From Paramecium tetraurelia (lineage: Eukaryota): 64,000 bases of DNA. Under the pieces are notes generated by a model that was given only the letters and a program-made list of their open reading frames with translations, was not told where the DNA came from and searched no databases. Position 1 is the first letter of the stretch, and each line of letters starts with the position of its first letter. Below are positions 16,872 through 37,270 of the stretch, one piece after another. Made by a program: the position numbers and the translations under genes. Location: NCBI GenBank assembly GCA_000165425.1, contig CT868252.1, forward strand, positions 186,001 to 250,000. Reading direction: 5' to 3'.

Positions 16872-18430
16872 ATGTTAAGAAAGGCTATTTTGTTAGGAGC
16901 ATTTACTACTGGATGCACATTCTTTATGCCCCCGCAACAAAAGAAGGATCTTCAAGGATTTACAGCAGGCTTCATCAATTCCTTCTCTGCAATCAAAACA
17001 TGTACAATGACATCTTGATTTAGTAATCGAATCTCTTTATGACTATCAAGTAGAGTTAACCAAATTTGAGTACAATACTGAGGAATATCATCAATAAAGA
17101 TCTATTGTAAGGATATGTATTCTTATTTGTAGATTCATCAAAGAGTTGCTGATAGGATTTTGAGATTAAGCATTGAGAACAAAGGGGTTTATTTAAAAGC
17201 AGGCCAATATATTGGGAATTTGGAGAGAGTTATGCCAAGGTAATTTATAGTTAAACTTAAGGGAATTTACATAAACACTAAGAGTTTTATAAGATCAAGG
17301 ACCTCAGGTGTCTTTTGAAGATGTCAAAATTGTGTTAGAATATGAATTGCAGAAACCAATTTAAGAAATATTTACAACATTTTCTCATAAAGCCATTGCA
17401 GCTGCTTCATTAGCTTAAGTTCATTAGGCAACTTATAATGGAAAAGAGGTTGCTGTAAAAGTACAATTTCCCTAGTTACGAGTTTAATATAGGTATGATT
17501 TAATGATAATACACAATATTGCTAAATTGTGTGATTTTGTTGTGTCAAATACTGGTACAAGTGAATTACATTTTTCTGATTTATTTTCTACATTTCGAAA
17601 GGCTTTGGAGAAAGAACTTGACTTTACTTTGGAGGTTTAAAATGCTGAAATAACTAGAACCAATTTCAAAAATAATACTAGAATTTACATTCCTCAATTT
17701 TATGAATTTTCTTAAAGAGTTATTATAATGGAATTCATTGATGGTGTAAAAATTAATGATGTAAATAAATTAAAAAATCCAAGGGAATGTGCTAATATTT
17801 TAATTGATATGTTTGGATAAATGATATTTAAATATGGTCACGTTCATTGTGATGCACATCCAGGGAATATATTGATCAGAGAACAAAATGGAAAATAATA
17901 ATTGGTATTATTGGATCATGGATTTTACACAGATATTGATCAAGAGATGTTATAAAACTTTAGATGTTTATGGAATAATATTGCTAAATTCAATTATAAA
18001 GAAGTGGAAAAATACGCAACGAAATTGGGCATCAAAAAGGAACATATCGAATTTTTACCATTAATTTTCTTTTATAGAACCATATCATCAAAAAAGAAGT
18101 TGGGGGATGCTTTCAGTGTTGAGGAGAGACAATATTTAAGAAATAAAGATCTAGTAACTTTGGAAAATATAAATGCCTTATTGAGATCGATGCCCCCTGA
18201 GATCATGTTTATAATTAGAGCAGCCAATTTAGTAGGAATTCATAATGCTTTACTTGGAGGTATTTCATATAAGGTATATTAACTAAGGTACTACAAGAGA
18301 CAGACTTTTAAAATTCACAGAATATTCTGTTAAAAATTCAGAAAAGAGTGTTTGGAAATAAAAGTTTGAGTGGATAAAACTAAAGATAGCTCTATTTTTA
18401 TTTGAATTTTTTGGTTTAACACATAAATGA
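16872..18430 (+). CDS. ABC1/UbiB atypical kinase (ADCK1/ADCK5-like)
   Basis: GVYLKAGQY, IAAASLAQVH, VAVKVQ, KELDFTLE, HCDAHPGNILI, LLDHG. Confidence 0.92.
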
Positions 18431-20173: not shown

Positions 20174-21643
20174 ATGGATTATGAAACTCTCTTTGCCGTT
20201 CTGCCCAAAGAACCAAAAAAATGGTCAAGGGAAGATGTATCGTAATGGCTCAACTTTGTTGGTTTACAGTCACTGTAAAGCACTTTCAGTATGTATTTAT
20301 TTATAAGAGTAGTAAATAATTCAATTGATGGATCATGTTTAGAATTAATAGAAGAAAATGACTTAATTGATGATCTCGGAATCAATAGTAAGATAGTTAG
20401 AAAAAAGTTAATGCATTGTAAATGTAATTTTAAAGAAAGGGTTGAAAAATGGATTAAAGGAGTACACTTAACATATTAAATCAGTAATGGTTGACGATAA
20501 GCGATGCGATAAGATGGAATAAGAAAACACTTCTCTTGAAAATACAGAATCAGCACAAGCATAATATGGATAAATTAATATATCACATGACATGATGACT
20601 AATTACATTAAGAATAATGAAATGTTATCTCAATAGTTCTAACAGCCATTATGCGAAATGTAATCGCTATACACTATAATCTAGTGAAAACAGGCCCTAG
20701 TTTTTAAAGAAATAATAAACCGGCATTTAATTAGAATAGGAAGTTGAAAACTTTGCACCTAAAATATCAAATGAACTCATTATTCAACCAACTGAAGGAC
20801 CTCAGACTAATTTTTATTGTATAAAGGAATCAGGTGGTAAGATAGGCAGACACTCTAGCAATTAGATATTAATATTGGAAGAAAGCATTAGTAGATTTCA
20901 TGCCGAAATAGTCTTTTAAGATGAAGATGTAATTTGAGTGTTTTATGAAATAGTTTTTCATTAAAGACATTGGATCAACTACTGGCACTTTCATCAAAGT
21001 AGAAAGCAAGTTAGAATTAGAAATTGGAATGGTTATAGAATTGGGCAGCAATTAATTTGAGATTTAGTAGTTGACTTCTAATAATCAAACAGTAGAAGTA
21101 AAGCTATCTTTATCTATTTATAGGTTGTCATGCTTATTATTGAAGGACTTAATTCCTCAGAAAAGCATATCATAGCTTTGAACCCCTAAAAGTGCGTTAC
21201 GACTGTAGGCAGAAAGCAAACTGCAGATCTCACTTTCAGCGAAGATCATCATCTCTCAAATATTCATGCCAAGATCTGCCTTATTGAAGGACGTGTGTAT
21301 CTGGAAGATATGGGATCAACTAACGGGTATACTTATTAAATGTTATGGTAGTTCCTGGTTGAGATTGTCTAAAGAAGGACTGTTCTCATAGTTATATCCA
21401 TTACAAAATCAAACGGCTTTCAAAATTGGAACCACTTCTACATATTTATGTAAAAGAACTACTTAGTTGATTACCGACAAGAATAACGAGAATAGTTGTA
21501 TAATTTGTATAGAAAATGACCGAGATGCTCTATACATGCCCTGCAAACATAATACTGCTTGTCTAAAATGCAGCAAGAATTTAAAAGACTGTCCAATTTG
21601 CAGAACCAAAATCCAAGATGTTATCAGAATCTACAAAAACTGA
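20174..21643 (+). CDS. SAM-FHA-FHA-RING protein (putative phospho-dependent E3 ligase)
   Basis: SAM: WSREDVSQWLNFVGL...IDGSCL; FHA1: IGR..ISRFHA..GSTTGT; FHA2: VGR..LSNIHA..GSTNG; RING: CIICIEN..PCKH..CLKC..CPICR. Confidence 0.9.
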
Positions 21644-21687
21644 TATTCTTATTAGATATATATATAAATTATATATTATTTAAGTTA

Positions 21688-22950
21688 ATGGGATCTATTT
21701 GTGCAAAGGATAAAACAAACAAAATTGTCATCAAAAGCTATGCAAAACCTGGAAATACACCAACTCCTAATGTTCCACCAAAAACCATGAATACATACAA
21801 ATATGTTGGTGAAGAGTTTCAATAAGAAATTGAAAAAAATGATCCATCTTATTCTCAGAAACAATAAAAGTGGAATCAATACTACTAGAGGAAATATGAC
21901 CTATTGAATGATGTGAATTATAGTGCTTTATTAAAAAGATCACCATCGATTGAGTAATTATAATAACAGACTAATGAAGATGATCAATGCAAAGAGCCGA
22001 AATTAAATTCTAACAAGCAGTTTTCAAAGAAATTAATATTGTAGCTAGCATAACAACTTGGTGGCCCTTTCAAATTGACAAATCAAGATATTATAGATGC
22101 TTATCTTCTAAAAGAAATCAATAACGAAGATTTTAAAAACATTCTTATGGATGGAGCTATTTCCAAATACAGATGGAATTTTTGGATGGCTCAAGTTTAT
22201 AGGAACTAAGATTATGATCCTCTTCTTTATTAAAAATTGAAAAATGAAACTCCATCTCAGAAAGTCCTCGAAGATATAACCAAGGATGTCAATAGAACTT
22301 TTCCTTCTCATGATCACTTCAAAGACAACAATTAAGGTTAGCAATAATTATTATCTGTTCTCAAAGCCCTTTCCATTCTCAATGAGGATATTGGATATGT
22401 ATAAGGAATGAATTATATTGTTGGCTTCTCTTTAATTGTCAGCGGAGGTAAAGAGGAGGAAGTCTTTTGGCTTATCCATTTCATTAATACCAATCCTCTC
22501 TTCTTCTGGTGGGAAATATATAGAGTCAACTTTAATTACACCAAAGCTTTGTGTCAAGTCTTCTTAAAAAATTTTTATGAATAACTCCCAGGTCTTTATC
22601 AGCATTTCTAAGATGAAGGAATAAGTGAGTAGTAATACATTTGGCAATGGATTTTAACCTAGTTTTTATATACATTCCCCATCGATAACGTGATTTTCTT
22701 TTGGGATTTCATATTGGCAACCGACATCTTTTCAATCATTAGAATTAGTATAGCTTTTCTTAAGGAATATGGATTTGATTTAGTCAACAAAGACATTGGT
22801 GAAATTTCGGAATATTTTACTGGGTTCATTAAAGATCAATTACAGATAGACATTCCACAAATAATCGAAGCTGCAAAAAAGATAGATGTAAATATGACTG
22901 ATGACTAAAAACAATTCTTTAAAAATTATAAACCTCAATCATCTACTTGA
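21688..22950 (+). CDS. TBC-domain RabGAP with predicted N-terminal acylation
   Basis: DITKDVNRTFP (Arg finger) and GYVQGMNYI (Gln finger); N-terminus MGSICAK; intronless, 420 aa. Confidence 0.92.
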
Positions 22951-23049
22951 TATTACTAAATTTCGATTTTATATGTAAATAAATTTTATAGAAATATTAA
23001 TTTAATATGCTACATTATTTGTAATATTGAAGTGCTGTTCTTTAATTAA

Positions 23050-23667
23050 ATGAATTAGCAACAGAAATTAAGCATCTATTATTCATTGTAATTTAAGCAT
23101 CAACATTAATCTTCCACACCTAAAAACTCAAAGTATTAGGATATAAAAGATAAGTGATATATCAGTATAATTTTGATCCATCTTTAACAGGTATTTTTTT
23201 AACCAGTATGATAACAGAGCTAACATAATAAATATATTAACCAACATGATATCAATAATTTTATATGGCTATTATGATCATGATGTAAAAGAAACCTTTT
23301 AAACATTTGCTATAGATAATTTAAACTTATTCAAAATCATTTTTTGTATTTCTCATTTATAGAGTTGGATCTGATAGCAATTTAGAATAAGAAAATTTAA
23401 AAACAGTTCTATATATCTTATTGAAATAGTAAATGAAAACTGTATTAGGATAAATTTCAATCAAAATTGAAAGAAGCATCTAAAGAAATTCCAGTGTCAT
23501 CTCAATGTAAGAATAACATGTTAAATGGTTATAATAATTAAAGGAAACATAAAATGAGGTAGCCTAGAAAGAAGGATCATTTAAAATATGGATATTTATC
23601 AGAACAGGGCTTGGAGTTAAATTATTGATTGGATATAATATATTGTAATAGTAATAATCAGCATGAA
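23050..23667 (+). CDS. Possible hypothetical gene (structure uncertain)
   Basis: About 100-codon open frame ending at a TGA near 23665; 5' exons ambiguous. Confidence 0.2.
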
Positions 23668-23731
23668 TAAATCAAGAGTAGAATAATATCAAAAATTATT
23701 AAAAATACGTGAATATATCAACTCATAATAA

Positions 23732-24031
23732 TCATTTATACTTAACAATACTTAAATAACAAATCCCTACTCCAGCAGCTGCCAATACTTATGTAGGATA
23801 GCTATATCCCCAATCTTCCATATAGGCGCATGTGATTTAAAATAATGCTAGCATAGGAGGAAAACACAGAGCCTTTGATCCTATGAATTTTGCATAGTCT
23901 AATCTAAGCTAGGATTTTGTCCAAGTTGCGTTTGCAGAGCTGAAGGGATAATCATAGATCCCCAAAAAGATTGAAAATAATAATCCATTACAATAGCCTT
24001 AAATAAGTTGACTTTTTTTCTTTTAATCCAT
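23732..24031 (-). CDS. Small 99-aa multi-pass membrane protein
   Basis: Intronless ORF with hydrophobic segments GLLFSIFLGIY, ALCFPPMLALFQI and VLAAAGVGICYLSIV. Confidence 0.65.
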
Positions 24032-24043
24032 TTTATTATATTT

Positions 24044-26889
24044 ATGAATATATTAATATTATTGATTTTATAGCCATGTCTTATGATATAATTGTTGGAT
24101 GGACTAATAGTAGTGGAATATCAATTTGTTGACTACAACAATATTTAATTTGCTTTAACTTGCAAAACTTAATTCTGGTGTTTAATTGGATTTGGTTCCA
24201 CATATTCAAATGCTGACATTATCAGGATGTCTAATGTTAATGGAGTTTTGAAAATTGAAGACACCCTAGAGCAGAACAAGATTTCGTTTACATCTCCTAC
24301 TGTCGATGCTTAGCAAGATATATATGTTTTGGATGCTTTGATAAATGATACATATATATTTTCTTCGTTTTTAAAATCGACGAACTCAGATGATCCCACA
24401 GATGAATTAATAGACTCTTATAATAATGTTGAAATGTTTTATGCCATCAATGAGAAGAGTATAGATTTTGATACTTACACCTAATTTGGTAGGTTTTAAC
24501 TTCAAACTTATTAATGTCATTATACTTGTGCCACATGTTATGGACCATTTGCATATTAATGCACAATGTGTAATGATAATAGCATCCAAGTTCTGAATGG
24601 CTAATGCAATTCTAATTACTATAATAATGTAACTGAATTGCTAAACAAGCAAATCTTAATAAAGGATGAGTTTATTCTTTAGTGGGAATATGATAAAAAT
24701 GATAATATTATCTTATAGATAGAAATATTCTCATGTGATTGGTTTGGCTTGGGATTTAACAACGATAAGTAAGAATTGCAATTTAATATAGAATGGAAAA
24801 TACTGATATGTTACTCATTACTATAGAAACAATAACCATCAACAATGACAAAGGGTATTATGTCTAGATTGATGACATGTTTGGAACTCAGAATACTGCT
24901 CCATTATCAGACACTCAGTTATTTGGAACCTAAGATTGGATTTTGGATGGCTTTACATACAATAATGTTACAGATTTATTAGTTATAAGAGTTCATCGTA
25001 AATTGGTCACTTCTGATAAATACGACTTTGACTTTTCGTAAAAGAAGGACACCTTGAGTATTTATGCATTTGGTCTAAATGGTCAATAATACCATAGTGC
25101 CAATAGAGGGGCATTTCAATTTGAATTGTCTAAGAATAATTAATCCTATTAAGAAGATTATTGGGACAAATTAGTTCATAATGGTCACGTCATACTCATG
25201 TTATTATTTTGGTCATTTATTTCAGATGTCGGCATATTTTACGGAAGACAATTGAAGAGTTATCCAAAGTATGTTCGAGTCCATGGCATGATATTTCTAT
25301 TCTTATCAATAGTCACCTACTTTTTTGTATTTGGGATGATATCGTAATAATAAAAAAGAATATAACAATTAGGATATTAAGAAACCAAAATAATTCTTCA
25401 CTTTATTCTTGGAGTTGTCATATTATTAATAATGACAACACAAATATTTTTAGGTTTACTAGCGAGAAATAATTTAGAATCCAATAATGGCACATATTTG
25501 ATTTACAAAGTGAAATACATTCATAAATATCTTGGTTACTTATTGTACATAATTACAAAGATACAAGTAATTATTGGAATTACCATATATGATTCCTCAT
25601 ATATTGGACTGTTCATTATCTATTACGTCTTATTGTTTTTAATTAAATTTACCATCGAAATGCTCTATTATTATTAAGTGTCTGCAATGTCTCGAAAGAG
25701 AATTAAATACAGTTAAATTGAATAGGACCAACAAACTCTCTATGAGAGCATTATTGAAAAACTGAACACTGGCACTCCATACTAAGAGATGATAGAAGAC
25801 TATCCTAAAATTACATACATTATTCTAAGAGAAGCAGTCTATGATGTGAGTGATTTCAACCATCCAGGAGGATAATACATCTTCAGAAAAATCAAAGGTA
25901 GAGAAGTTGGACGTTATTTCTATGGATCCTACCCAATTAAAGACACTAAATTACATAAACACTCTTAGTTTGCAATCAATTATATCGAAACTCGTTATTT
26001 AGGAGATTTCAAAAATGAATCATGTCCCATGCTTTACACTGTCTCAGATTTTAAGAAACCATCTCATGTTTGGACATTACAAGAAATTAAATCCATGGGT
26101 ACCAATGTCTCTCTGTTTAAGTTCATTAACTAAGATTTTAAAGTGAATTAAACTATCTAAGGAGTCTAGTGGTTTGGTAGATACTTCTATATCAAACCAT
26201 ATGGCATTGGAATAGATTTCTAAGAGAGACCTTACACAGCTGTTTCATGCTTAAGTGAAATGAATATCAAATATAGGTATGAATTGATTGAGTATCTCAA
26301 ATCAAAAGATTGGACTAAACCTTTGCCATAACTGCCACAATTATCAAACATTTTATAGTTTGTTATCAAAAAGTATAATGGCCAAAAAAACTTAAGCAAG
26401 TTCATTCACACTGCATCTCATAAGAGATTTGAAATCACAGGACCTTATGGCTTTGGATTGGAATTAGATGATCACAGTTCTGGAGTGCATTATGTATTTT
26501 GTTAGGGTACTGGTGTTCTGCCATTTCTGGATCTATGTGATTATCTTCTAAGAAAGGCTATATTTTCCATTATGTACCAGGATGGGTTGCCAATTCAATA
26601 GCAGTATAATTCATTGGACAAATTTAAATTGATCCTCTGTGTGTCATCCAAGACTTAAATTTTGGGATATCCTATTTTATAAGACTTAGAATATTTGAGT
26701 GGCTAATATAATCTAAATTTATTTGAGTTCCACATAACAAAGTTGCATTACACTAAAAGAGACATACAAGATAAATTGAAATATTAGGCTGCAAAGGTTT
26801 ATGTGTGTGGATTCCAATAATTTGAAGATGACTTAATAGAATTGCTCTAACAATGTGGTGTAGACTCCAGATATATAGTATAAATATGA
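24044..26889 (+). CDS. Multidomain oxidoreductase: signal peptide, DOMON, Cys-rich repeat, DOMON, cytochrome b561, cytochrome b5, FAD/NAD(P)H-binding FNR-type domain (940 aa)
   Basis: WFGLGF..MENTDM..YHSANRG; four TM His (GHV, VHG, LHF, IHK); VYDVSDFNHPGG..KHS; ERPYT; GPYG; QGTGVLPF; VYVCG; single intron 24769-24791. Confidence 0.9.
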
Positions 26890-27512
26890 GAGCTATCAAT
26901 CTGCGTTATAGTATTTATTAATCACAGTGTAGAGAATAACTCTCTTTCTTCTGAGATGCATCAACATCTATATCTTTATTATAGATTGCTTTCTTTGTTG
27001 TTGGTTATTTCATAAATTCTTCTTTATTTTCTCTGATTTCTCAATATATATTTTGATTCTTTTAAATAATATATCATCTATTCCACTCTTTAAGATATTA
27101 TTTCAGCTTTTGTAAAATCATCCTTAAATGTATATTCTTTATTTCATACTGTTTCAAATTTCCAGTTAATTCTTATAAATCACTAATACTTTTTGTATGT
27201 AAATTGCAAAGTAAAAACAAAAAATTAATTATTGATATAATAAATTATAAATTATATATGAATTTAGAATTTTTATAAAAATAGATGAGTTAGTTAGGAC
27301 TCGATTCAGTATGTACTAATACGTACAATAAATTTATTTTTAATTTGAATAAAGGTTCATTCTTGAATTTTATTTGGTTGGCTTTATAATTTAATAATTA
27401 TTCACTATCGATTATAATTTCTGGACAATATCTTATTTATCAATTATAGATATTCCTTTTCAATATGTTTTAAGCTCAGCAAATTAAATCTAAATTGAAT
27501 ATTTTCTTTATT

Positions 27513-27830
27513 ATGATAGAATAGTCCAAATAGAAACGATCTTACACCAAAATACCTCCAAGTAAAAAGAGAGCTTTGATTCATAAGGTTTTTCAAAATG
27601 GATTGCAAATTAAGCAAGTATGCATGAGTATGAAAATGTAGGCAGCTTAGTAATTATAACTGAAGTATGCTACGGCTAAAACAATAATACTTCTTTACAG
27701 AATCAAAGTGGTGAGGAAAAAACTTATATTCCCATCAAATAAACGTTGTTTAATTCTTCCTTTAGACAATAAGAAAAATAATGTTATGATTGTCTCTTTG
27801 GTTGCTGGAAAACTATAAAATTAGAAATGA
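27513..27830 (+). CDS. Small helix-turn-helix (homeodomain-like) protein
   Basis: KRSYTKIPPSKKRALIHKVFQNGLQIKQAAQQLQLKYATAKTII; intron 27618-27641; alternative in-frame ATG at 27465. Confidence 0.75.
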
Positions 27831-28718
27831 AATATTAGATTTAATTCAAAATGAATTTTTCTTCATCTTGTCCACATAATTACATTTTTTCGAGAACTTA
27901 GTGTTATCAAAACTTTTACCTATTTTTGGTATTTACATAATGCTAAATATCTTTGTACCTTTGAGTCATAAATTGATGAATTCTAGAACGGAAACAACCA
28001 AGATTTTATGATTAACAAAATATATATCTACATTCAAATAGGATCCCTATACTTTTTTAAATATTTTATATAGTTAACTCCAACTATTTAACAAAGAGTG
28101 CAAGTTTTGATAAATATATTTAAAATTAAAATTAATATTATACTGTTATAAACAAATTCGTCAATCTTATTTTGGGTTAAGTAAATGGATGGTGCTTCTA
28201 CTTTAATTGAGTCATTATTAATATTAAATTTATTAATTATATAAAAATATATTCATAGTAATCTCTACTTGATATAAAATTTTAATATAAACTTATTTAT
28301 AATTTTTTTTCTTCTCTTCTCCAAAAAATAGATAAAACTTATTAATTTTCTCCATAAAATTAATGTAAGCACAACATAACAAAACATAATGAGCATTCAA
28401 AAAGTTCACTACAATCTAGTTGATTTTCATTTCAATTTTGGAAATTTATATAATTTGATCTGCGTTTTTCTTTATAGAATCTATGCTACATTAAATATGA
28501 ATCAGCTTGATAAATTGGATTTGAATTAAAATGAGTGATGTATATTCATTCAAATTTGATACTATATAATTTATTTATAAATCTAATTAGAGAGCTGCTT
28601 AATACAAATCTAAAATATTATAAATGGGATGTTTGAAATGATATGCTTAGATATAAAGTATTGATGTGTATGACGGGTAAAATATAATATAATAATGATT
28701 TGAATATTTTCATAAGAA

Positions 28719-30325: not shown

Positions 30326-31348
30326 TCACAAATATAAGACCACACAAGTAATATCATCCCTAGCTAAACTATTTCTTTTCCATGCATCCACTGCAAAATT
30401 TAGTAATTTTTATGCTGCCAATTCAGCATTTATATTTTTATCATAACATTGACTCAAAATTGAAACTACATCTTGGGATGACAGGTACTCCCAAATCCCA
30501 TCTGAAGCAAACACTAAGATTTTGTCTTCGTTTGTTAATTCGTACTCTGTAATTTCAGGAGTTGCTATAACTCCAGCTTAAGCACCTAGTCTATCTCCCA
30601 TTGCTCTTGTCATAGCTAATCCTGGTGCATTCAATGTTTTCAACCAGACTCGAAGTGGACCCACTTAATTACCATAAATATCTTATTAAGCAGCTATACG
30701 CCCACCAGCTTTTAATATTCTTATAGCCTCATCTTCTCTAGAAGGCTTTTAGTCCTTTGTTAATTCAATAGTCTACCAAGAATTCCCAGTTTACTTTGCT
30801 ATTACACATCTACTATCACCTACATTGGCTATGTATAACTTATTTAATTTTATCAAACCACAACACAAGGTTGAACCTGCAATAACAGTTTCAATTTTTG
30901 AATTATTGACCAATTCATTATTTGTTTATAAAACACCTTTTATCAATGTTTCTCTTGGATCTAAAAGACTTTGTTCAATATATTTGGGTAGAGTGATTCG
31001 AATAAATCCAGAAACACGCTCACCATTCACCCCATGTCCATCAGCCACACCATAGAAATTCAGCCTCTTTTCTATTATAAATGCATCTTAATTAGTCTTC
31101 TGCTTTCCGCTCATCAATTATCCAGGCAAACTCATTACTCCTAAATTTGTTAATAATTCTTTGCGACCAATTTTCCAAGACTGTCTGAATTAGATTACAA
31201 TCTTACTTAGCATCTGATGTGATTGATGGTAATTTTGGTAGCCTATCGAATGATTGATATTAATAGCGTTTCGGTGTTTCAACTAACAATTGACATCAAA
31301 TAACTTACTGTAAGATTTCTTATAACCATAGGAATACCTGTGAGTCAT
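30326..31348 (-). CDS. Protein phosphatase 2C
   Basis: TNQDAF, VADGHG, ANVGDSR, GLAMTRAMGD, ASDGIWE, DDITCVV. Confidence 0.93.
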
Positions 31349-32078: not shown

Positions 32079-33172
32079 ATTAATTAAGTGAATGTTAAAA
32101 TATTTTCTGTTTTTTGAATGTATTTCCAATAGAAAATATATACAAACTAAATATATCTAGAATTATATTTACATTATTTTTGGATGTGTTAATTCAATTT
32201 TTTGATAATTTATATGGAGTTTTTATTTATTATATAAATAAACTTGTTAGAAATATGTTGATAAGAGTATTTGAAAAAAGTCATCATGATCTCAAAAACT
32301 AAGAATAAATCAAATATTTATTAAATTTAAAATGAAGAATAAAGAATTTAAGTTAGACTTCAAAGGGATATATTAATTACTAAATAAATTAAAATTAAAT
32401 TATTTTTATTATAAGCAATTTTAATAAAACACATTTCATTAATTATATAACTCTAAAGATTTAAATAAATTAGTGGATAAATTAAGAAATTTGTCTAGAT
32501 TCGATTAAATAATCAAGATATCACAATTCTTTCTAAATTTCTCTAATTTTTTAGTAAGTTTGAGTAATTTGTAAATAAAATATAATACCAAGATCTAATA
32601 TAAACAATAGAAATCTGTTTAATTAATTTATCAAAAAAACTAAATGATATAAATACTCTATTCCAATTAATCGACTTATGAAATAATGTTCTTCAAAATA
32701 AAATGTTGAAATTTTTGACGTAGTTATCATAAAACTTAAGGTAAATTATACAAATTATTTTATTAAATTAATAGATTCTAGCAAATACCCTAAAAAGACA
32801 ATAATTCTTATACTATTTTTGCAACGAATAATTATTTCTAAAGTATATATCTAATCATCTTTAAAGCTTATGATAGAAGAGAATAAATCATAAATCATCC
32901 AAGTCATTTTCAAAAGAACATGTAAAAAAGTTTTATTAATATAATTATTTTATTATTTTATTTTCGTTTTTTCACTTAATTCTTTTGAATCATTGTTATC
33001 AGTGACTTTTAGCAATTTTTGGTTACGAACCGATTAGTAATTAGGTTAGATTTACATTTTATAAAGTCCAGTTTCTTACCTGAAATTTATAGAAATTAAC
33101 ATTGTCGCAAGTTTTGAATTCTTTGAATATAAGATAATGTATCAGAAGAATGATTTATTAATCAATAAATTA

Positions 33173-36100
33173 ATGGGAATTTGCAGCTCTAAAAAATCTG
33201 ATAAGGAAGCAGGAATATAACTGCAAATAGAGTAAACAGTAGCAGAATAGAAAAAACTGAAAATTGAAGAAGAGCTCTAAGTATAAAACTCAACCAGGCG
33301 TTCAATTTGCAATTAATTTTCTACACTTAACACAAATGGAAATGCTGTCACACTTCATTAAGCTGAATAAGAGGTCTAAGAATATTAGGATGGTGAGCCA
33401 GAACAACAATAACAGCCCAAACAAGCCAAAACTTCAAAGAAGAAGCCTAGATCAACAAAAGATGACGTAAATTACTATAGAAGATCAGATCACGTACTGA
33501 AAGTCTTTTCTTTAGTGGTTGAATTAACTCAAAATGATCAAAAAAAATATTACAATATTACTATTGGAACAAAAATTAAAGATTGTGTACATTATGCTCA
33601 TATGAATGGCATATTGATCACTTAAAATGATTTTGAACTTTTTACTTTACAACCAGAGACATTTAAAGAGGCTAATAAATATTCTCGAATACCAACATTC
33701 TTTTCTACTGATAATTATTTTAATATTGACAAAGAGAGTCCAAATAGCTTTATTTCTTTTGAGAAACTATTAAATATTGAAAGAAAGATTGCTCTAAAGT
33801 AAACTCAAATGAGATCAAAGAAGAAACAGAGCATGATATAAGATTAGCATCTAAATAAAAAAGAAGCTGACTTTATTTTGACCACTAATTTAGAAATGCT
33901 TGAAATTATAACTGTTGTTGATATTGAACAACAGTCAAGATTTTTAAATGTGTTGTTTCATTTGATCCTATAACACTATCATTAAAATCTAGATTAGTAT
34001 TTAGTGTTTATAATAAATACAACATTCTTGTTTGATATACCTCCCTAATTTGATTAACCAAACATGTATAGGTTGGCATTGTTCTATGATAGTCTCTCTT
34101 ACTCTTTAAAAGATCTGTAATAGATTTTACTTAATGATAAAAGCGAATTAAGTAATGTACTACACAAAAAATTGTCATTAAACTTAATAGAGATCCTCAT
34201 TGGCTGTTATGAGAAGTATCTCTACAGACTCAATTTCACAATATCAACAGTATTTTATGTTCCAAAATATAAATCATTTAAGCTGGAATCGTTTGGTAGA
34301 ATGAAAACTTTAATAGAATTCGGTCAAAATCCAGAAGTGACTTTGAAGACTTTGGAGGAAAAGAAATATAAGACGTTTGTAAAAAGTTTCAAGAAAGATT
34401 TATATGCAATAACTGATATGATAATCTACTTCAAAAGGGTTTAGACCTAGAATTTAAGAACCATAACGACAACGAGAAAGAAGTACTTTGTTAACATGAA
34501 GAAAGAGTAATTAGAGAATTTAGAGGAAGAGAAGAATTATTGTTTATTAGCTGAGAAGTTGTTTTGTCATAATCAAGATCGTTATCTACTTGAATTCCTT
34601 AAGATGGCCATATATTCACATGAAGGGAGTGATGTTGATAAAATGATTTAGGATTTCAAATAAGCTACAAACTCTCTTCAGAAAGAATTAAATGAAGTAG
34701 ATTTTTAGTAAGACTCAAAATAATTCGATGAATAAGATTAAAATCAAGAATAGCAAAAACAATCTAACTCTAATTCAGTGGATTTGGATGAGTTGGCTGA
34801 AGTAAAGTAAATAGACAGCTTTCCTGTGAATATAAGAGAAGACTATAAATCTATTGCGTTGAATAAGGACAAAATTTCAGAAGTAGACCAAACGTATTAG
34901 GAGATAATATATCAGTCATTACTCTATGGTAATAAATTTCAAGCTTGTTATGAAAAGTTTCAAACTTTATAGAAACCTATTTTTTAAAATTGTTATGTGG
35001 AGATACTTAATATTTTCTATTTTATTAGACAATATCCAGAAGATTCATGGCAAGAGAAATTAAAAGTTGTTTCTTAAAAGATGGACAAAGTCATTGATAT
35101 CATTAAAACAATAAAGGATGATAGCGTTGACAATTTCCATATTACTCTCCTATTTTAAATTATGACACTGTCTTAAAAGAAACCCTTTGTGATTTTAAAT
35201 TAATTATAGAAATGCATATCTAATCAACTGAAATAAAAGATGTAAATGGATCATAGATTAAGAAGTCAAAATTAAGCTAAAGGGTTACTTGAATAAAAAA
35301 AACATGTAATGTTATAAGTTTGGTCAGCTCTGTCTTATCTCAGCTCAGATAATTATTTTTAGGCAATCAGCAAAATCTAAAAAGCGATAGGATTCTAATT
35401 GAAAAATCAGCATTAAGCATCATTGTCCTATGGTTATTCTTTGTTAGTGAGTGGAGAAATAGCCAGAATAAGTTTAGCACCAGTTTCAGCTATGCTTAAC
35501 TTAGAAATGAGTTTAGTAATTTACAATCAATTCTTTCCAGAATTCAAGTCGGTTGAAGATCAATTAGACATTTAGGATAAATCAGAATACAACCCTTTTT
35601 AAATCAAATATAAAGATATAAAAGTCAAAAATTTAGCTACAAGTAACAAAGCTAAAGTAGAGTTTTTGCTTGGAATGAGTTACTTTGATATCCATGATTA
35701 AGAAAATTCATTGTTGTGCCTCAAAAGAGCTTAAGAGTTGATGTTACGATCATTTCATATTTATGCAGAGGAAGTTGTTTTTCTAGTATTATAGTAATTA
35801 TGGATACATGTTTTACAGGATGACATTGGACATGCTATGAACATTGCATTGTTTTATGCTAATGATATGAATTTATAATATAGAAATGGTCGAGAATTTA
35901 AAAAGAAGATAATTTCAAAATTATAGTTCATAATAGGGTCAATCTTTGAATTTAATGGATAATATTTAAGTGCTATTAGATTTATAGAACGTTCTAATAG
36001 GACATTGACTAATGCAAAAGGTAATAATTTTGTAATTTAAATGCATTACTAAGCCAAGAAGATTCAAATAATTTCAAAATTGAGAGAGGCTTTTTTTAAA

Positions 36101-37270
36101 ATAAAAAGTAAATAATAAGTAAGATGTGAATAAGATTTGAGTTTATTCTAAACTTTGAATGAATCTTTGGGCCAGACATTTCAAACACTTTATTTTAAGT
36201 AACCAATTACTCTGAAAACCTCAGTGTTATTGGGTAAAGTTGGCAAGTAGATAATTCATATTCAAGGTTTGATGAGAACAGATGGATAAACTAAAGCTAT
36301 GAAATTATTGGGAGAACTGATTAAAGCTTTAAATAAGAGTAAAAAGGATGAAATCTATGGTTTGGTCTAGGATAAGTATCTAACATTATCTTTGGAAAAA
36401 ATGAATCCGAAAGAAATCGAAGTGTAAATTCATAGTATAATAGAAATTCATGATAGATACTTGTAATTTCCATTAAAGTAACATCATGTACTCAAGTGTT
36501 AACTTATCCTATTGTGTGTATTATTAAAATAGAAATCCACTAATTAAATATTTGAACATTTCAAAAATATTGAATAAACAATTGAGGATTTCTAAAATAT
36601 CCTATAATGGAAATCATTATCATCTAGTAGCAAAGATGATGTTTATGTTTAAAATAAATTTGAGACCATTGTGAAAAAGGGAAGAATCGCTATGGTCTAT
36701 CAAATTGCTAATGTTACAGAACTAATTGAACTCTTCAATAAATTTAAGAAAAAAATATTTGAAAACTTATAAAATAGGGATAAGTTCGTAGATCTAGCCA
36801 ACTAATATTAGAAGAAGATAATAAACAGTTAAGCTTTTCTAAAATTATTGGAGACTAAGCAAGAATGTTTGCTTGGAAGTTATTCTTAAGTGAAAATAAT
36901 TAATGATGGAGAACATGAATTACAATAAATAGAACCAGTTGCTGCTATTTAAAGGTAAAGTACACAACACTTGAAAGTAGTGGAGTAATCAACAGAGGTT
37001 GATACGAAGGAACATTAGAAGTTGGTTTTTGATTTGAGAAGCATTGAAGAATTAATGGTAGAGAAGAAGTTAGCCCATCATAGAAAAGGGAAAACTTAAG
37101 AAGAACTTTTAAGAATTGAAGAGACACCTGAACCAGAAAAAATGAAGAAATCGCATAAAAGAAATGAGACTGAAATCCCTGTTAATAATGCTCTAAAAAA
37201 GAAGAAAGCTGATTATAAAATAAACCCATTCCAAAGTACTTTGAAAAAACAATAAAAATAGCAATTATGA
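33173..37270 (+). CDS. Large intronless 1365-aa helical/TPR-like protein with N-terminal acylation motif
   Basis: ATG and TGA in the same frame; MGICSSKK; TPR-like KVEFLLGMSYFDIHDQENSLLCLKRAQEL. Confidence 0.8.

Follow-up and report, generated by a model that had tools for sequence, protein, structure and literature searches.

CYBDOM proteins of the HYP1, CRR and SDR2/FRRS1 type are documented ferric and cupric reductases, and in passages of the two papers that describe them (PMC10784544, PMC10784552) ascorbate is the electron donor of all characterised b561 proteins. HYP1 has five helices, with H211/H278 as the apical and H245/H314 as the cytoplasmic histidines (passages of PMC10784544), and the C-terminus of CRR, a five-helix CYBDOM, was placed in the cytosol by split green fluorescent protein (passages of PMC10784552). 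In plant CYBDOMs, ascorbate is bound by residues of the region at the cytosolic face of b561. Here, we analysed a 64,000-nucleotide (nt) stretch of Paramecium tetraurelia DNA (contig CT868252.1, positions 186,001 to 250,000; hereafter the window), in which open reading frames (ORFs) on the + strand outline a gene that starts at 24044 and ends with a stop at 26887–26889. Its predicted product carries, in order, a signal peptide, two DOMON domains, a b561-type core, a cytochrome b5 and a reductase of the FNR type (Table 1), and we consider that this single type-I-like membrane protein probably forms a self-contained trans-membrane electron chain.

In the path that we propose, hydride would be transferred from NAD(P)H to flavin adenine dinucleotide (FAD) within the FNR-type module at the cytosolic C-terminus, and the FAD would hand single electrons in turn to the heme of the adjacent cytochrome b5. 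The b5 domain, tethered about 35 residues past helix 5, could then reduce the inner b561 heme (His406/His486), from which electrons would cross to the outer b561 heme (His374/His445), continue to the heme of the membrane-proximal DOMON2 (Met243/His343) and leave to an extracytoplasmic acceptor; if the protein resembles HYP1, CRR and SDR2 in this respect, its likeliest acceptors are chelates of Fe(III) or Cu(II). The distal DOMON1, which has no heme ligands, and the Cys cluster would probably serve in binding or spacing. The redox potential of NAD(P)H lies far below those of b5, b561 and DOMON-type hemes, and outward electron flow would thus be favourable. An earlier note on this DNA had proposed the same wiring; the architecture, the predicted topology, the conservation of the cofactor residues (59–66 of 66 aligned proteins for those of the b561, b5 and reductase parts) and RNA from one strand support it. 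The path itself is one that we infer, and so are the binding of its cofactors, the way in which electrons would run along it, their donor and acceptor and the membrane that would house it. The functions suggested in the earlier note, those of an ascorbate-independent ferric reductase or oxidase that perhaps acts in food vacuoles, are speculative.

The domain order, the conservation of ligands and motifs, the number of helices, the gene structure and the transcript are observed. A scan of 1.84 billion representative proteins (clustered at 50%) returned 779 proteins with an expect value (E) ≤ 1e-3, 228 at ≤ 1e-10 and 43 at ≤ 1e-30, the best homologue matching at E 6.8e-78. The motifs HPGG, RxY[ST] and G[TS]GxxP were present in this order and spacing in 80 of the 150 matches listed, and in 66 of the 81 that were at least 560 amino acids (aa) long. 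From the family we built a 66-row alignment (A2) with P0001, the orthologue from Paramecium primaurelia, as its first row; a further search for homologues with the A2 profile added only one new protein, which was short and had a DOMON. The window protein carries every conserved cofactor residue tallied in A2, and the spacing between landmarks is tight across the family, with a median of 113 residues (range 95–135) from His486 to His599 and 32–36 from His599 to His632. Pfam families were matched over the 66 members as follows: Cyt-b5 in 48, DOMON in 38, Cytochrom_B561 in 33, FAD_binding_6 in 29, NAD_binding_1 in 19 and CDH-cyt in 7. One member, P0045, passed the cut-offs of all five constituent families, in the order DOMON, b561, b5, FAD, NAD. 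Among Paramecium species, the parts best kept relative to P0001 were the b561 core (96% identity), the linker between b561 and b5 (97%) and the b5 domain (98%), and 29 of the 30 linker residues were identical to those of P0001.

Among organism-named sequences, the family appears to be confined to ciliates of the Oligohymenophorea and Heterotrichea. All eight organism-named clusters among the 30 representatives looked up were ciliate, with named members from Tetrahymena utriculariae (two), Paramecium sonneborni, Blepharisma stoltei (two), Stentor coeruleus (two) and Fabrea salina, and four close matches came from Paramecium species. The remaining clusters came from metagenome or transcript-sized contigs. 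Searching from P0045 added a single named protein, which again stemmed from the Fabrea transcriptome assembly, and a related-locus search from P0062 in metagenome contigs found nothing. In a FastTree tree of 52 rows, a branch with support 100 separated the six heterotrich rows, which formed two or more paralogue groups, from the half of the tree that held the Paramecium and Tetrahymena rows. There, the window protein grouped with P0001 and P0002 (the P. sonneborni orthologue), then with the 819-aa single-DOMON paralogues P0003 and P0004, and then with a Tetrahymena protein (support 97). Because the named members and the tree cover both groups, the fusion predates the split between Heterotrichea and Oligohymenophorea, and it has been copied many times. 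Public databases give these proteins automatic names such as 'DOMON domain-containing protein' and 'Cytochrome b5 heme-binding domain-containing protein'. Ten members (P0009, P0018, P0019, P0033, P0042, P0047, P0050, P0051, P0061 and P0063) have 0–18 residues before the first b561 His and no DOMON; these may genuinely consist of b561, b5 and FNR parts, or their gene models may be truncated at the 5′ end.

At E ≤ 1, 34 of the 35 Protein Data Bank (PDB) chains matched by the b5 segment of the window protein were b5-type, with HPGG aligned. The b5 motifs described in the earlier note were found at residue 599 (HPGG) and at the His of KHS, 632, and so were its reductase motifs, RPYT at 721, GPYG at 792, GTGVLP at 814 and YVCG at 912. 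The two b5 histidines stand 33 residues apart; the usual spacing is ~24. Searched against PDB, the A2 profile matched the NADH-cytochrome b5 reductase 2eix (E 2.8e-18), as well as 7rom, many FNRs (3.9e-16 at best), the fusion protein Cyb5R4 (6mv1, E 2.3e-9), cytochrome b5 (E 2.9e-9) and the DOMON of dopamine beta-hydroxylase (4zel, E 2.5e-9). NADH-cytochrome b5 reductases are the nearest known counterparts of the predicted reductase. The presence of Cyb5R4, a soluble natural fusion, among these matches calls for a qualification of the earlier note, in which b5 and its reductase were described as normally separate proteins.

The four b561 histidines that had been noticed before are His374, His406, His445 and His486, and helices 1–4 begin at them. 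Of these, the first and third (His374, His445) sit at outer helix ends and the second and fourth (His406, His486) at cytosolic ones, which suggests one outer and one inner heme pair, arranged as in HYP1. A cleaved signal peptide together with the odd number of helices (five) would place the b5 and FNR parts in the cytosol and the DOMONs outside the cytoplasm. The charges of the loops predicted to be cytosolic are consistent with this (4 basic and 0 acidic residues in 394–406; 4 basic and 1 acidic in 466–488); loop 426–446 is less clear (3 basic, 1 acidic), residues 531–560 after helix 5 are uninformative (4 basic, 4 acidic), and NxS/T sequons, of which there are four in the ectodomain and four in the cytosolic part, give no topology signal.

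The ectodomain begins with a hydrophobic segment that is likely a signal peptide. DOMON1 matched the family DOMON profile, which was cut from A2, at E 4.2e-22 and has Tyr both at the Met node and at the His node, in agreement with the earlier observation that it has no heme ligands; the orthologues from P. primaurelia and P. sonneborni carry the same Tyr motifs. In DOMON2, the expected motifs were found at residues 243 (MENTDM) and 342 (YHSANRG), providing Met243 (24793–24795) and His343 (25093–25095) as candidate heme ligands. At each of these columns 48 A2 rows have a residue, and the Met is kept in 40 of them and the His in 34. Two DOMON stretches were also found in P0001 by Pfam scan, and tandem DOMONs occur in P0036/P0164, P0058 and P0104; most family members have a single DOMON. 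A BLASTP comparison of DOMON1 with DOMON2 was not significant (E 0.74) and gave no sign of recent tandem duplication. The cysteine cluster between them had been called a furin-like repeat: its six cysteines are present, but this label was borne out by no furin-like Pfam family over the cluster, the only rows there, both below the cut-offs, being DUF5462 (E 0.23) and zf-AtTam37 (E 0.41, in P0001).

These domains also bear on a variant in which the chain is the same, the outer DOMON heme delivers its electrons to an extracytoplasmic partner redox enzyme, such as a copper monooxygenase, and DOMON1 is a docking or ligand-binding module. The CDH-cyt matches in 7 of the 66 members (E 9.1e-12 in P0036), the match of the family profile to the DOMON of dopamine beta-hydroxylase and the retention of the ligand-less second DOMON in three Paramecium orthologues would all suit such a role. 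We nevertheless find it decidedly unlikely, as no partner was identified and most members of the family have only one DOMON.

The nuclear gene is readable only with the ciliate code, in which TAA and TAG encode Gln (code 6). Under table 11 the longest ORF in 23000–28000 is 87 aa, and with short ORFs only, a bacterial or organellar reading is ruled out. The coordinates given in the earlier note, 24044 to 26889, proved exact, with the gene on the + strand, but its description of one reading frame was not borne out: translation of 24044–26889 in a single frame meets TGA stops past residue 337, and under code 6 the + strand holds two ORFs in different frames, 24044–25057 (337 aa) and 24793–26889 (698 aa), that are joined by removal of a 23-nt intron. 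Splicing out 24769–24791 leaves a continuous frame of 940 codons followed by TGA. We accepted this intron because an assembled RNA contig (set X4; 24063–25632) lacks exactly 23 nt at 24769, because the resulting junction (...GFNNDK|MENTDM...) is that of P0001, and because the annotated orthologues P0001 and P0002 are each 940 aa and align without gaps to the spliced protein, at 92.7% and 86.1% identity, respectively. Short RNA-seq reads (X20–X22) had a depth of 0 at the splice junction and are neutral on the intron. Together with the ciliate code and the orthologues, the very short intron marks the DNA as that of a Paramecium from the aurelia group. The window is AT-rich (GC 0.21–0.31) and the DNA of the gene is 28% GC; since both exons are open, with 940 codons free of TGA at this composition, and homologues match at up to E 6.8e-78, the frame is beyond chance. 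The gene is transcribed, as three runs of stranded oligo-dT RNA-seq (X20–X22) covered 24105–26924 with the first mate always on the - strand, and overlapping X4 contigs (24063–25632, 25622–25776 and 25748–26931) tile the gene and end 42 nt past the stop.

Several results weigh against a single NAD(P)H-fed chain. Of the Pfam families expected from the earlier note, DOMON and Cyt-b5 passed their cut-offs when the window protein was scanned alone, but its b561 and FNR regions fell short of theirs: Cytochrom_B561 (PF03188) scored below the cut-off, and FAD_binding_6 and NAD_binding_1 had no match at E ≤ 1. The C-terminal 295 aa, as a single sequence, had no real match in PDB (none at E ≤ 10), and an NCBIfam scan of the window protein gave 0 matches. 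The b561 region as a single sequence likewise had no real match in PDB, and a 10-row profile of the b561 part only (A3) gave 0 matches there; sequence searches led to no PDB b561. The Cytochrom_B561 score was 12.1 bits in the window protein, where the match spanned profile positions 2–131 of 137, and 16.6 bits in P0001, against a cut-off of 23, and 14 of the 28 homologues scanned singly passed the cut-off (best 34.5 bits). The proposed b561, FAD and NAD assignments thus rest on homologues and on the family profile rather than on the single sequence. In addition, the Asp that follows the second strand in the consensus of the NAD domain is Gln in the window protein (from the alignment consensus), and because of this replacement we leave the nucleotide as NAD(P)H.

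The RNA data hold further points of this kind. In all three X20–X22 runs, depth fell to ~0 at 25374–25655 (helices 3–5), the X4 contigs break at 25622–25632 and 25748–25776, near the b561/b5 junction, no single read or contig holds that junction together with both flanks, and the gene is not covered from end to end by any one record. Such a dip and such breaks would be expected if the fusion were an artefact, that is, a read-through of neighbouring DOMON-b561 and b5-FNR genes, or a dead fusion. This is hardly credible, as the frame runs through the junction without a stop, the linker is nearly invariant relative to P0001, the collinear architecture recurs in Tetrahymena, Stentor, Blepharisma and Fabrea proteins, and the X4 contigs overlap over the dip. 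The affected stretch is the lowest in GC of the gene (0.23–0.25) and is covered by X4, and the RNA data showed neither loose ends nor a clustering of molecule ends in it. The drop in depth at 25374–25655 is probably technical, though it might conceivably mark an internal transcript boundary.

A last point against direct feeding by b5 is the conservation of basic residues on the cytosolic face of b561, which in the consensus form R-Y-x-K before His406 and R-x-x-H at His486. These residues could bind ascorbate or, equally, an acidic face of b5. They would suit a protein in which the b561 core is still fed by ascorbate, the donor of all characterised b561 proteins (passages of PMC10784544 and PMC10784552), and the fused b5-FNR part works alongside, for example in NADH-dependent re-reduction of monodehydroascorbate or for other b5 clients. 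We regard this as unlikely. The fusion, its domain order and its spacing are kept family-wide, which is easier to explain by direct feeding from b5, and a passage of Wheeler et al. 2015 (PMC4396506) has Paramecium without GULO and GLDH and likely an ascorbate auxotroph. A b561 needing millimolar cytosolic ascorbate would be poorly served in such an organism. On this basis we tentatively suggest, at somewhat less than even confidence, that in ciliates, of which Paramecium and perhaps the group as a whole cannot make ascorbate, an ascorbate-driven CYBDOM was converted into a self-contained wire with one flavin and four hemes that draws on NAD(P)H, b5 and a b5 reductase having been fused to its cytosolic end.

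Table 1. Coordinates of the gene and its predicted protein features in the window, and conservation of key residues in the 66-row family alignment (A2).
Feature	Window position	Strand	Residues	Basis and key residues	Kept in A2 (of 66)
Exon 1	24044..24768	+	1-241 and first two bases of codon 242	Open under code 6; N-terminus and junction as in P0001	
Intron, 23 nt, GTAAG...ATAG	24769..24791	+		Frame shift of 2; 23 nt at 24769 missing from X4 contig	
Exon 2	24792..26889	+		Includes TGA stop 26887-26889	
Hydrophobic N-terminus (likely signal peptide)	24044..24100	+	1-19, peak 5-23	Kyte-Doolittle mean 2.14 over 5-23	
DOMON1	24101..24505	+	20-154	Pfam DOMON, residues 19-135, E 1.5e-22, 80.6 bits vs cut-off 32.7	
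Six-Cys cluster	24515..24607	+	C158, C162, C165, C173, C176, C188	Cys positions in spliced protein	
DOMON2, interrupted by intron	24641..25149	+	200-361	Family DOMON profile E 8.5e-42	
b561-type five-helix core	25177..25656	+	371-530	Hydropathy; helices 375-393, 407-425, 447-465, 489-507, 512-530	
b561 histidines			His374/406/445/486		64/66/66/64
b561 tryptophan			Trp382		64
Cytochrome b5	25762..26016	+	566-650	Pfam Cyt-b5 (PF00173) 26.3 bits vs cut-off 23.7; His599 (HPGG), His632	
b5 motif			HPGG		65-66; His599 66
b5 second histidine			His632		66
FAD-binding half (predicted)	26017..26436	+	651-790	R721-P-Y723-T724, K768; family profile finds 2eix	
FAD-half arginine			Arg721		63
FAD-half tyrosine			Tyr723		64
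FAD-half lysine			Lys768		63
NAD(P)H-binding half (predicted)	26437..26886	+	791-940	GPYG at 792, GTGVLP at 814, C914-G915	
NAD(P)H-half motif			GPxG		65
NAD(P)H-half motif			G-T-G of GTGxxP		66/61/66
NAD(P)H-half proline			Pro819		63
NAD(P)H-half cysteine			Cys914		59

Upstream of the gene lies a divergent gene on the - strand (23682–24104), whose RNA contig reaches 24039; with the ATG of the studied gene at 24044 and the first base of its RNA contig at 24063, the starts of the two divergent transcripts are no more than ~25 nt apart. A 99-aa ORF on the - strand at 23735–24031 had no Pfam match. The other neighbours are ordinary, unrelated genes, namely a RabGAP-TBC (21568–22947, +), a PP2C (30329–31348, -) and an ABC1 kinase-like gene (17503–18366, +), and neighbouring genes give no functional context. 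A 1530-aa ORF at 32678–37267 (+), read with the ciliate code, matched no Pfam family at E ≤ 0.001, and there was no tRNA or Rfam match in the window.

In agreement with the earlier statement that no functional characterisation was known, full-text literature searches turned up neither a description nor an assay of the five-domain fusion, although domain surveys may already list the architecture; a passage of the CRR paper (PMC10784552), citing Aravind 2001, mentions DOMON fused to a 'FAD/NAD-binding oxidoreductase'. If our reading is true, this would be the first b561 fed by a protein heme instead of ascorbate, and a natural version fed by NAD(P)H and b5 would show that the b561 bundle accepts electrons from a protein partner. 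Eukaryotes would then have, besides NOX/FRE and STEAP, a third class of trans-membrane reductase that depends on NAD(P)H and was assembled independently, and the gene would offer a compact genetic module for NAD(P)H-dependent electron transfer across a membrane. Such a protein would explain the reduction of metals (iron, copper) at the surface or in the vacuoles of an ascorbate-auxotrophic predator, and the large family, which is old and much expanded and appears, among organism-named sequences, to be limited to ciliates, is a candidate for a solution particular to this lineage for acquiring metals or for redox signalling.

Compared with known systems, the predicted protein resembles NOX, FRE and FRO in its proposed use of NAD(P)H and FAD, two trans-membrane b hemes and an outside acceptor within one polypeptide that ends in an FNR-type dehydrogenase; it differs in that the membrane part is b561-type, with a predicted extra b5 heme before the membrane and a predicted extra DOMON heme outside. 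The Ferric_reduct domain of NOX/FRE enzymes has six helices, with His pairs on helices 3 and 5. Membership of the NOX/FRE family is ruled out, there being no Ferric_reduct match in Pfam scans of the window protein, P0001, A2 and single members; NAD_binding_6 was touched by only 1 of the 66 members (E 0.0012). The parallel logic of NAD(P)H, flavin and trans-membrane heme raises, by analogy only, the idea that the same chain acts as an oxidase that reduces O2 to superoxide or H2O2 in the manner of NOX, for example in phagosomes. This we hold to be very doubtful, since the terminal heme would have two protein ligands (Met/His) and hence no open O2 site, and the missing Ferric_reduct match likewise argues against it.

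For the proposed NAD(P)H-to-DOMON chain, cellobiose dehydrogenase offers another likeness, as it relays electrons from a flavin through a Met/His-ligated b heme in a DOMON fold to external acceptors, and its cytochrome family, CDH-cyt, is the one matched within our alignment; it is, however, secreted and soluble, with a GMC flavin domain, a sugar donor and no membrane step. NADH-cytochrome b5 reductase, cytochrome b5 and Cyb5R4/NCB5OR share the RxY[ST], GxGxxP and CG motifs and the HPGG b5, and gave the best PDB profile matches, but these proteins are soluble or tail-anchored and serve cytosolic or endoplasmic reticulum clients, whereas in the window protein the pair is fused behind a two-heme membrane bundle. 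With the CYBDOMs HYP1, CRR and SDR2/FRRS1, the protein would share a signal peptide, an extracytoplasmic Met/His DOMON, a five-helix, four-His b561 and a cytosolic C-terminus, and its DOMON, the ligands, the number of helices and the pattern of histidines make it a protein of the CYBDOM kind. Known CYBDOMs end soon after helix 5 and take cytosolic ascorbate as donor; unlike them, the window protein has a very divergent b561 region that falls under the Pfam cut-off, a ligand-less second DOMON at the N-terminus and ~400 more cytosolic residues, which comprise the b5 and FNR-type parts.

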